In this document: one piece after another, positions 54,467 through 56,502 of the stretch | Layout: each line of letters starts with the position of its first letter | How positions within the stretch are numbered: position 1 is the first letter of the stretch | Source: an uncultured Chloroflexia bacterium | GTDB taxonomy: Bacteria; Chloroflexota; Limnocylindria; Limnocylindrales; CSP1-4 | Direction of reading: 5' to 3' | Assembly: GCA_963828165.1 (NCBI GenBank) | Contig: CAWHDR010000001.1 | Coordinates: 256,001-320,000, forward strand | Length of the DNA: 64,000 nt | Program-made: the position numbers and the translations under genes | The notes under the pieces: model-generated | What the model was told of the DNA's origin: nothing | The model's database searches: none | The model's input: the letters and a program-made list of their open reading frames with translations, nothing else

Positions 54467-55147
54467 ATGCAGTTCTTCCGCTCCAAGCCGCAAGCGCTCC
54501 CCTCCCCAGCCGAGGCCCTCCCGGGCCGTTCCGAGCCCATCGTCACTCCGGGCATCCACACCGTCCTCGGCACCCCGATCGCCGGCCCCTGGCCGGACGG
54601 CACGAAGACCGCGGTCTTCGGCGCCGGATGCTTCTGGGGCGACGAGAAGGATTTCTGGCAGCTTCCGGGCGTCGTCACGACCGCCGTCGGCTATGCCGGC
54701 GGACACACGCCGAACCCGACGTATCAGGAGGTCTGCTCGGAGCGGACCGGCCACGCCGAGGTGGTGCTGGTCGCGTACGACCCGTCAGCGATCTCGTACG
54801 AGCAGCTGCTCAAGAGCTTCTGGGAGCACCATGACCCGACGCAGGGCATGCGCCAGGGCAACGACGTCGGCAGCAGCTACCGCTCGATCATCATCGTCGC
54901 CGGCGACGAGCAGCGGGCGGTCGCCGAGGCCTCGAAGGCCATGTACCAGGAGCAGCTGTCGACGGCGGGGTACGGCTCGATCACGACGGAGATCGTCGAC
55001 GCCGCCTCGTACCCGTTCTACTACGCCGAGGACTATCACCAGCAGTACCTCGACAAGAACCGAGGCCCAGGAGCCTATTGCCCGGACCACCGGACCGGCG
55101 TGAAGTTCCCTGACGTCGTCGTGACGCCGCTGCAGTACGTGGACTGA
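54467..55147 (+). CDS. msrA: Peptide methionine sulfoxide reductase A
   Basis: [45 protein letters not shown] 6 nt before the ATG. Confidence 0.97.
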
Positions 55148-55165
55148 GCCGCTCCGCAGCGAGGC

Positions 55166-55465
55166 TTAGGTTTTGGGCCGTTCCTTGGGCGCTTTCAACG
55201 GGATGTTACCCATCTCCGTGAGCGTTGCGACCCGCGCATCGTGGTCAGCCGCTCGCGCCATCCGCTGGAACTCTGCAGTCACAGCGTCGAGCGCAGCGGC
55301 CTGACGCTCGTACAAGTGGTGGTCTGCATCCGTCAACGGCCGTCCCGGCATCGCCCAGGGTCCACGTTCGACCATCCGCGAGTAGTGCTTGTAGTCGGCG
55401 AGCATCTGCGGGAGGTGCTGCAGCCACGTTTTGCTTCTGTCATTTGGTCCGACATCCCTGCTCAT
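55166..55465 (-). CDS. Hypothetical protein or fragment (insert cargo)
   Basis: ORF only; start uncertain. Confidence 0.4.
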   Translation of the reverse strand: MSRDVGPNDRSKTWLQHLPQMLADYKHYSRMVERGPWAMPGRPLTDADHHLYERQAAALDAVTAEFQRMARAADHDARVATLTEMGNIPLKAPKERPKT

Positions 55466-55509
55466 GCCTGTGCTTGTTACGTGTCGCCATGCCCGGAAGC
55501 GCACTGAAG

Positions 55510-55908
55510 TCACCCGGGAGCTAGGTCCTGAGTCGTGATGAGCATGATGCTTCTGGGGTCGTCGGCTGGCCCCTTTTGGCAGCCACCTTGAACAACGTCC
55601 CCAGCCCGAAACCGGACCGTGTTGCGCTCGTCGAGAACCTCCAGCTCCGGGGTGAAGCGAGCCGAGTATTGCGGGGGCCAGACGAGGTCAATGCGTCGAC
55701 CATCCGACAGCTCCAACCACGTGATACGCGGGTCGTCCGGGCTGCCAACGAGGGTGGCATCACTCAGGCCAACCCCACGACATGCGCTTGCGAACGCGGT
55801 GAAGGGTAGCGGTAGGGGTGGGGTGGGCGGCGATACGCAGGCAGTCAAACAAAGTCCTAGAAGCACGGCCGGAACCGTGCCCCTAGGACTCCTGAGCAAC
55901 CGGCGCAT
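55510..55908 (-). CDS. Hypothetical lipoprotein (insert cargo)
   Basis: Basic N-terminus, lipobox LTAC, LVWP..Y.ARF.P; start uncertain. Confidence 0.6.
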   Translation of the reverse strand: MRRLLRSPRGTVPAVLLGLCLTACVSPPTPPLPLPFTAFASACRGVGLSDATLVGSPDDPRITWLELSDGRRIDLVWPPQYSARFTPELEVLDERNTVRFRAGDVVQGGCQKGPADDPRSIMLITTQDLAPG

Positions 55909-56140
55909 CGTTGAAACCATGATGCGTTGACGGCTACGTCGGGTGCGTAAGTTCGGCCTCCTGACGAAGCTGCAACTCCGGGTCGTATCGCCAGCGCGAG
56001 TCACGCCAGAGTGCCGCTGCTCGCGAGGGACCGAGCGAACAAGCTCGACGATGGTGATGAGCGTCTGCTCGTGCTCCAGTTCGAGGCGTGCCATAAGCGC
56101 AGAATAGGGGTCGCCCCACCAACCGACAGGGAGATAGCAA

Positions 56141-56389
56141 ATGGCCCCGCGCGTAGTCCTGACCATCACGCCCGGGAACGACAAGTCATTCGAGACGAAG
56201 GTCCGGGAGGCAGTCAACGCCGTTGACGGTCCAATCGACTGGAGTGACGAAGCGCAGGCTCGCGCGGTCGAGGGGGAGGTTCGCCGGTCATATCCTGAGG
56301 CTGAGGTGATGGTGACGGACCACCCAATCAACCCGCCCACTTGGAACATATATCGCGACGGCGCCCCGCGACGCCTTCACCTCGATTGA
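56141..56389 (+). CDS. Small hypothetical protein (insert cargo)
   Basis: GGGAG RBS, 82 aa. Confidence 0.55.
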   Translation: MAPRVVLTITPGNDKSFETKVREAVNAVDGPIDWSDEAQARAVEGEVRRSYPEAEVMVTDHPINPPTWNIYRDGAPRRLHLD

Positions 56390-56413
56390 GGCGGCAATAC
56401 GCTGACCTAGCTG

Positions 56414-56502
56414 AGAACCCCCGCGGCTACTGCCCGAATCACTCGACCGGCGTGAAGCTGCCGGATGACTTCGTCGTCACGCCGCTGCAGTACGTGGACT
56501 GA
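56414..56502 (+). pseudogene. msrA: Displaced 3' end of msrA
   Basis: Encodes [28 protein letters not shown]; last 24 bp identical to 55124-55147. Confidence 0.9.

Follow-up and report, generated by a model that had tools for sequence, protein, structure and literature searches.

Much of the pangenome of uncultured bacteria consists of small flexible islets, and it is poorly understood how single genes enter and leave them without visible mobility genes. In integrons and clusters of attC sites lacking integron-integrases (CALINs), small and mostly single-gene cassettes from a shared pool are strung into arrays, with the newest cassette next to the anchor. Cis-mobilizable elements (CIMEs) are defined relative to a cognate integrative and conjugative element that supplies the integrase. 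For the ssrA islands of Dehalococcoides, the published account describes an insertion site placed by means of a conserved motif that stands before each repeat and does not align with the native gene (PMC3146451). A study of phage PhiM247 of Lactobacillus crispatus describes the 5' end of msrA, the gene for peptide methionine sulfoxide reductase, as a prophage attachment (att) site (PMC10763512). Here we analyze the 3' end of msrA, and a 1358-bp insert within it, in a 64,000-nucleotide stretch of DNA (the window) from a metagenome-assembled genome (MAG) of an uncultured member of the Chloroflexota. The insert is one unit of a family-wide cassette array that sits in the coding end of msrA and has no recombinase of its own. 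A preliminary description of the same DNA, which had read it as a single integrase-less cassette, was largely right but too narrow.

Results

The window corresponds to positions 256001-320000 of contig C1 in the source MAG (G000; 3.3 Mb, 87.7% complete, 2.1% contamination). As listed in Table 1, two versions of the end of msrA are found on the same strand. After ...HQQYLDK, the msrA frame does not proceed to the canonical end but runs on into a divergent 29-residue tail (tail 1), and the canonical end (tail 2) lies downstream. AGAACC opens both tails (55056-55061 and 56414-56419, an offset of 1358 bp), the two stop codons are 1355 bp apart, the final 24 nt are the same, and the Cys is retained in tail 1 and tail 2 alike. 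A repeat search of the window split the pair into a 57-nt match of 74% identity and a 37-nt match of 95% identity, and blastn against the whole 3.3-Mb assembly found these two copies only (86 nt, 84% identity, E 2e-16). Sequence, repeat search, and blastn therefore agree with the two Cys-containing tails, 1358 bp apart, of the preliminary description. Its account of an insert lower in G+C, with small orphan open reading frames (ORFs) and no recombinase, holds as well: the G+C of the insert is 0.631 versus 0.696 for the contig, and the three ORFs of the insert matched nothing in Pfam, NCBIfam, PADLOC, or PHROGs, scans in which no recombinase was found among them. When compared with 5.8 billion proteins, the 115-aa ORF had, apart from itself, a single homologue, which aligned with 55% of the query at 81% identity, and the 132-aa lipoprotein-like ORF had two (82% and 54% identity). 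The cargo DNA was found nowhere else in the genus except for a 107-nt match in genome G096, where a fragment 55% identical to the 132-aa ORF lies downstream of msrA.

The arrangement recurs throughout the genus. From a first draw of 24 same-genus genomes, the msrA locus was taken from 17, giving 18 loci together with G000 (left out were G002, G004, G005, and G013, which had no msrA match, and G008, G009, and G019, whose contig was short or ended at the match). Eight of the 18 loci carried one or two extra copies of the msrA end 0.45-1.5 kb 3' of the first, and the DNA separating the copies differed from genome to genome without relatedness. With tail 2 as the query, at least one match was obtained in 110 of 131 genus genomes and at least two in 52 of those 110, with six in one genome; the figure of 52 is a hand count of the match table, and adjacency to msrA was checked for only part of the extra matches. 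Twenty more loci, picked for their multiple matches, were direct arrays of two to six tails in every case.

The same holds beyond the genus. In a sample of the family in which two candidates were scored per genome, 200 of 401 genomes had tail matches, and at least eight other genera had paired tails on one contig, 0.1-4.8 kb apart. Twelve loci fetched from other genera were arrays of two to five tails, although their MsrA proteins are merely 59-73% identical to that of the window. The genes 5' of msrA vary between genera, with no recombinase among them, and the gap between msrA and the aldolase gene eda on its other side ranges from 1 to 14 kb in relatives. Such arrays were observed directly, and the comparison of msrA-eda loci, in which cargo differs and the arrangement is not identical throughout, supports the earlier proposal in so far as the 3' end of msrA is a recurrent insertion point that holds different cargo in relatives. 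What had been taken for a single cassette is one unit of these arrays. In msrA or the attached tail of G143 (locus L060, oriented 7470-7620), G086, G141, G015, G012, and G001, we also note 1-nt indels or frameshifts, which are either long-read assembly errors or real pseudogenisation.

A chimeric contig joining the msrA ends of two strains would likewise present two tails, and G000, with the completeness and contamination given above, is a MAG. However, both junctions are bridged mismatch-free by short soil-metagenome contigs, at 55022-55209 (run X4) and 56295-56445 (run X1). Contigs from four public runs match pieces of the insert exactly. Because these runs belong to one study and may include the MAG's own sample, they do not amount to independent support, and the stronger argument is recurrence: three metagenome contigs and dozens of genomes from separate assemblies have the same architecture. 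We therefore consider an assembly artefact, a concern that the preliminary description had raised, to be extremely improbable.

We next describe the junctions. Every tail copy points the same way as msrA, so that the copies are direct repeats. Copies still attached to the gene read ...CAGCAGTACCTCGACA/AGAAY (the slash marks the junction), and their junction codon is AAG in 32 of 38 cases, whereas displaced copies have GAG or CAG in 31 of 43 cases and AAG in just two. Displaced tails are preceded by a different sequence, motif M, of which the commonest form is CGGCARTASGCTGACCTGTCTG/AGAAY and a shorter form is GGCAGTAGTCYCGCTG/AGAAT. Motif M is similar to the native upstream sequence and diverges from it at one constant nucleotide, A/AGAAC. 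It is conserved upstream of displaced tails in many genomes, and where the following tail is missing (G022 and G015), it still closes the module, with the break at or just past AGAAC. The repeat and its boundaries were thus read directly from the alignments. Scans for the pattern of motif M plus tail gave no match in viral contigs; eight loci in metagenome contigs, three of them true and none with an integrase; and 16 loci in genome contigs, 14 of which had msrA-tail repeats (G+C 0.63-0.67) and two of which were chance matches.

Three GCAGTA-like boxes surround the junction: Box1 in motif M or in the native Q-Y codons, Box2 inverted in the G-Y-C codons, and Box3 at the LQYVD-stop end. Box1 and the junction are 8 nt apart in all 41 attached copies that were typed; among the 26 typed displaced copies, this distance is 13-14 nt in 20. 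On the other side, the spacing from the junction to Box2 is 14 nt in canonical tails versus 18-20 nt in tails of the RGPGAY type, to which tail 1 belongs. In G000, the left junction measures 8+20 and the right junction 14+14, from which a pre-insertion site (attB) of 8+14 with a 22-nt spacer would follow. The corresponding site of the free cassette (attP) would be 14+20, a perfect 7-bp inverted repeat (GGCAATA-34 nt-TATTGCC), and the two putative sites have the centre AGA/ACC in common. In serine integrases, the attP half-sites are a few bp longer than the attB half-sites around a common central dinucleotide. The spacing of attB and attP in G000 matches this large-serine-recombinase pattern, which is suggestive only, and it hints at a large serine recombinase as the enzyme that may act in trans.

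Two variants of this geometry were seen. In G133 (L045, oriented 8536-8732) and G116 (L044, oriented 10934-11125), two tails are separated by just 17-27 nt, which include an M-like motif, and these nearly back-to-back tails look like cargo-free cassettes. In G012 (L031, oriented 2460-2585), a displaced copy retains native sequence ~25 nt further upstream (CACTACCACCAGCAGTACCTCGACAAGAA...), as does the fragment in a virus record described below; this copy suggests a second type of insertion with a more upstream boundary.

The cargo between the tails is modular. Across 38 loci, the length of the 43 tail-bounded intervals ranges over 11-2743 bp (median 733 bp), and the modules (0.3-2.7 kb) mostly contain one gene each, on either strand. 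The families include a zinc-ADH-type oxidoreductase, YecM, VOC/glyoxalase, MarR (with a small partner ORF), ABM monooxygenase, SnoaL, RibD_C, and an esterase, as well as alpha/beta-hydrolase, nucleoside deoxyribosyltransferase, adenylate cyclase, methyltransferase, adenosine deaminase, ArsR with AHSA1, and TMEM175. The same modules are found in different genomes, at other array positions and beside other neighbours, also across genera; the cargo is therefore not only modular but also shuffled. In 20 of 20 module pairs, which were drawn from blastn matches and hence selected for similarity, cargo identity (85-97%) exceeded that of the msrA body (75-92%); for example, a VOC pair was 95.7% identical in cargo and 74.8% in msrA. 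Judged by these identities, the shuffled modules are younger than the species that carry them.

The displaced tails, in turn, bear a coding imprint. Their per-site variation at the three codon positions is 0.098/0.085/0.230, compared with 0.066/0.059/0.186 in attached tails, and the frame remains open in 22 of the 27 displaced tails of full length, with scattered private amino-acid changes. Because of this third-position variation and the open frames, the displaced tails look like retired coding ends. Consistent with this, tail 2 of the window is 87-95% identical to the attached tails of relatives (tail 1, ~83%), in agreement with its earlier assignment as the canonical, native end. In 13 of 401 family genomes, belonging to eight genera, the RGPGAY-type tail begins with 27 nt that hardly vary, despite far more divergent msrA bodies. 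This near-invariance supports the replacement C terminus put forward in the preliminary description; the part that does not stand unqualified is the joint arrival of tail and cargo, since cargo may be swapped between pre-existing tails, as genome G143 suggests (below).

On balance, we lean slightly towards an explanation in which a trans-acting recombinase integrates cassettes site-specifically at the 3' end of msrA and homologous recombination then shuffles them, because a fixed junction, an element-specific motif, discrete spacing classes, shared young cassettes, and retired coding ends are found together. Under this reading, 55056-56413 of the window would be a single cassette in an array system that has the final ~90 bases of msrA as its anchor. 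The circular or free cassette would bear an attP-like site composed of motif M and a complete replacement msrA end, and a recombinase encoded away from the array would join this site with the chromosomal msrA end at A/AGAAC. After insertion, msrA would read into the cassette's own RGPGAY-type tail, with the Cys kept, followed by the cargo and then by motif M, and the former canonical tail would be shoved downstream as a silent direct repeat. Successive events would stack cassettes while older tails decay, and homologous recombination or gene conversion between the ~90-nt tails would then shuffle, replace, and delete modules. The predicted circle junction, from motif M to tail 1, is ...CCTAGCTG/AGAACCGAGG..., and the predicted restored empty site is native CTCGACA/AGAACCCCCGCGG... 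Logan contigs of four runs contained neither the excision joint nor the empty site, but at a depth of ~2, which is far too low to judge. What we infer, as opposed to observe, is the recombinase, a circular intermediate, the precise point of crossover, and that the G000 unit is mobile today.

Several results weigh against such a recombinase. A scan of the 314 ORFs in 50 loci revealed no intact recombinase or transposase, either within the arrays or beside them, and tblastn with six recombinase queries over the 746 kb of these loci returned no recombinase beyond a fragment in G023; like every recombinase negative reported here, these are limited by the completeness of the genus MAGs (55-97%). 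In the five genomes with the longest arrays, tyrosine recombinases (PF00589) lie more than 300 kb off or on other contigs, and a match to PF00239 (resolvase domain) is absent from four of the five. Most cassettes have a canonical tail of their own (14-nt spacing) and not the +6 type, and covariation of Box1 and Box2 was not significant (14 concordant versus 10 discordant for own-cassette pairing; 13 versus 11 for adjacent pairing). The left and right tails beside shared cargo are ~82% identical, which is the background level; therefore, linkage of a tail to its cargo is not demonstrated, neither to the right nor to the left. Private variants are common to the tails of one genome, as in concerted evolution. 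Finally, in G143, the closest relative of G000 (94% identity across 199 aa of MsrA), the attached tail is RGPGAY-like and the displaced tail matches tail 2 at 96.6% identity, but the cargo and motif M differ from those of G000, and an additional SnoaL-like module stands before eda. Because the two genomes have their tails in common and differ in cargo, the present cargo of G000 may be an exchange between existing tails by homologous recombination, and the G143 pattern, the background-identity tails, and the private variants together point to frequent recombination within tails.

These observations (no recombinase in 50 loci, cargo plus motif M exchanged between retained tails, background identity on both sides of shared cargo, and private variants), together with the near-cargo-free adjacent tails of G133 and G116, are also what would be expected if no dedicated recombinase operated today. 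In that case, after one or a few ancient founding events, the tails of ~90-115 nt would serve as portable homology arms for RecA-type recombination within and between species, by loop-out circles and single-crossover re-insertion, by double crossover after DNA uptake, or by unequal exchange. Homologous recombination by itself, however, leaves unexplained the occurrence of motif M at the same junction nucleotide on unrelated genes, the separation of the spacings into two discrete classes (8 or 14 nt on one side of the junction, 14 or 20 nt on the other), and the fact that units of cargo plus motif M break exactly at AGAAC where the tail is missing. Moreover, tails of ~90 nt that are 82% identical are poorly suited to homologous recombination across species. 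We regard this explanation as possible but rather unlikely.

The sole trace of a recombinase within an array is the truncated serine-recombinase fragment in a cassette of G023 (G023a), which, used as a query, had no close relative in the genus. PF00239 genes are present in 47 of the 131 genus genomes, and only the G023 fragment sits in an array. G000 itself encodes, on C5, one large serine recombinase (472 aa, C5:10244) and two tyrosine recombinases of the XerC/D-like kind, and a further tyrosine recombinase, small and distant, at C1:454536; none of the four lies near msrA. No cognate integrase-bearing element was found near msrA in the 131 genus genomes, within the limits of MAG incompleteness. 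A virus, in contrast, combines both components: the IMG/VR record L064 (124,491 bp with direct terminal repeats, rated complete) contains a 3' fragment of msrA without the gene body (L064:569-2090), directly beside and convergent with a gene for a 444-aa tyrosine integrase, in a locus with a G+C of 0.70. The fragment is presumably the attP of the virus, in the classical int-attP arrangement, and its position beside the integrase indicates that the 3' end of msrA is used as an att site elsewhere. The block of identity in the virus begins ~33 nt further upstream than the junction used in the arrays, and the viral integrase as a query against the genus found generic similarity only (25-34% identity) and no close homologue. 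A tblastx comparison of the cassettes with the virus locus was rejected as composition noise.

The virus with its msrA-end mimic beside an integrase, the truncated serine recombinase in G023a, the lower G+C and orphan ORFs of the G000 insert, and integrase-free repeat-flanked islets at tRNA genes in the same genome are consistent with another origin, in which the insert is the dead remnant of a larger integrase-bearing island or prophage. Internal deletions would have left 1.26 kb of cargo between attL and attR, and the unit would be immobile. This fits poorly with intervals that are all small (43 of 43, at most 2743 bp), with cargo that consists of normal metabolic and regulatory genes and not of what phages or conjugation would leave behind, and with identical modules that recur with intact ends in many species. 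Repeated independent decay to single-gene size is unparsimonious, although it is possible for the G000 unit alone, and overall we find this origin improbable.

Three further repeat-flanked regions of G000 were noted. At C1:21638-23640, a tRNA-Lys gene (23566-23640, complement) has a 54-nt, 96%-identical partial copy 1.9 kb away, and the interior of this islet contains no integrase and no ORF with high G+C at third codon positions. At C1:159884-163461, two 55-nt, 96%-identical tRNA-like 3' ends (T-arm and acceptor) stand 3.5 kb apart, with no tRNA detected by ARAGORN and no integrase between the copies. At C5:191890-195985, three direct intergenic repeats of 150-236 nt (80-85% identity), spaced 1.4 and 2.5 kb, bracket a few genes and may represent another cassette-like array with a different repeat.

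Within the window, a scan of 54000-57500 found no Rfam RNA family, and a promoter and terminator scan of the same interval found one terminator-like site versus 0.9 expected. The region 5' of msrA (51112-54300, minus strand) contains an ORF for an FtsH-like AAA protease (783 aa) and a 276-aa serine-hydrolase-like ORF, both named by eye from their translations.

Table 1. Features of the msrA-eda interval (window coordinates)
Feature	Position	Strand	Remarks
msrA (peptide methionine sulfoxide reductase), 226 aa	54467..55147	+	PF01625, E 5e-59; now ends in the incoming RGPGAY-type tail
Box1 of the native left half-site, GCAGTA (codons Q-Y)	55042..55047	+	8 nt before the junction
AGAACC left junction, presumed crossover region; native sequence stops and cassette-borne tail starts	55056..55061	+	From alignments of attached versus displaced copies
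Tail 1 (attL side), RGPGAY-type replacement msrA end	55056..55147	+	Box2 TATTGC at 55076-55081, 20 nt from the junction
Cargo ORF, 115 aa in the longest frame (99-aa form in the protein collection), orphan	55166..55513	-	
Cargo ORF, 132 aa, putative lipoprotein	55510..55908	-	Signal peptide and LTAC lipobox, read by eye
Cargo ORF, 82 aa, orphan	56141..56389	+	
Motif M, GGCAATACGCTGACCTAGCTG, cassette right end	56393..56413	+	Box1 14 nt before the junction; stands in place of native CAGCAGTACCTCGACA
Tail 2 (attR side), displaced canonical msrA end, no longer translated	56414..56502	+	Box2 TACTGC at 56428-56433, 14 nt from the junction
eda-like KDPG/KHG aldolase, conserved right flank of the variable interval	56590..57246	+	PF01081, E 8e-38

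Discussion

The msrA locus is a clean, family-wide case of gene entry and exit, with a defined anchor, a defined junction, shared young cassettes, and displaced tails that preserve a fossil record. It further offers a natural swap experiment on the C-terminal segment of MsrA, a segment with a single Cys. If a recombinase exists, the arrays would constitute a cassette system outside integrons, to which only the ssrA islands of Dehalococcoides are comparable in the phylum, and possibly a new attB/attP pair. If none exists, a 90-nt coding repeat would act as a portable recombination handle. Taking site-specific integration a step further, we tentatively propose, and would rather doubt than affirm, that a recombinase-orphan, integron-like system operates family-wide in uncultured soil Chloroflexota, in which a pool of single-gene cassettes is inserted in trans at one dinucleotide of msrA, and each insertion rewrites the last 29 residues of MsrA and archives the previous end. 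If that were true, each array would be a readable history of acquisition.

In cassette size and content, integron arrays and CALINs come closest to the msrA arrays, which consist of small, mostly single-ORF cassettes that are shared among genomes, with similar cargo (VOC/glyoxalase, ABM, SnoaL, and MarR), and in which the newest cassette would likewise be the one beside the anchor; unlike in integrons, the cargo lies on either strand. No intI tyrosine recombinase adjoins the anchor, and the tyrosine recombinases of G000, two of them XerC/D-like, are located elsewhere. The repeat is conserved as coding sequence and not as a structure-defined attC, and hairpin covariation was not found.

With integrative elements in general, the arrays have in common direct repeats of the target 3' end, an msrA restored by an element-borne copy, and an element-specific sequence at a fixed nucleotide. 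No integrase encoded by the element beside an att site was found in the 50 loci; a truncated recombinase fragment in G023 was the only trace. The G000 insert is also like a CIME, a type of element mentioned in PMC3146451, in being an att-flanked unit without recombination or transfer genes, none of which are present among its ORFs; it differs in that no integrase-bearing partner was found near msrA in the genus genomes. Similarly, the account of the tycheposons of Prochlorococcus describes successive integrations at the same site that push older elements inward, partial target copies scattered in a flexible island, and niche-related cargo, all of which resemble the arrays, whereas tycheposons target seven tRNA genes and contain integrase and replication modules (bioRxiv 10.1101/2020.12.28.424599). 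In the loci scanned here the target is msrA, and the hallmark integrase and replication genes were not found.

The preliminary description knew of no report of msrA as an att site, but such use is not without precedent: besides the viral record with its 3'-end mimic, there is the Lactobacillus prophage PhiM247 at the 5' end (PMC10763512). In the literature searched, in which subscription journals were not included, nothing further on msrA as an integration site was found beyond this 5' end (PMC10763512). As in PhiM247 and the L064 virus, msrA sequence would form part of attB and attP in the arrays, although at the 3' end and not, as described for PhiM247, at the 5' end (PMC10763512).

Of the systems described so far, the ssrA islands of Dehalococcoides, from the same phylum, are the nearest to the msrA arrays. 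These islands have a tmRNA gene as the target, a 20-bp repeat, and a length of many kb, and 16 of them contain a six-gene integration module that includes the serine recombinase DsiB (PMC3146451). The msrA arrays, in contrast, have a protein-coding target, a ~90-nt repeat encoding 29 residues, and units of 0.3-2.7 kb, with no integration module found in 50 loci. However, the likenesses are close: in both, tandem islands lie 3' of a single-copy gene and are bounded by direct repeats of its 3' end, a short non-aligning motif directly before each repeat marks the point of insertion, and, as in the msrA arrays, some ssrA islands are without an integration module and are discussed as cis-mobilizable (PMC3146451).

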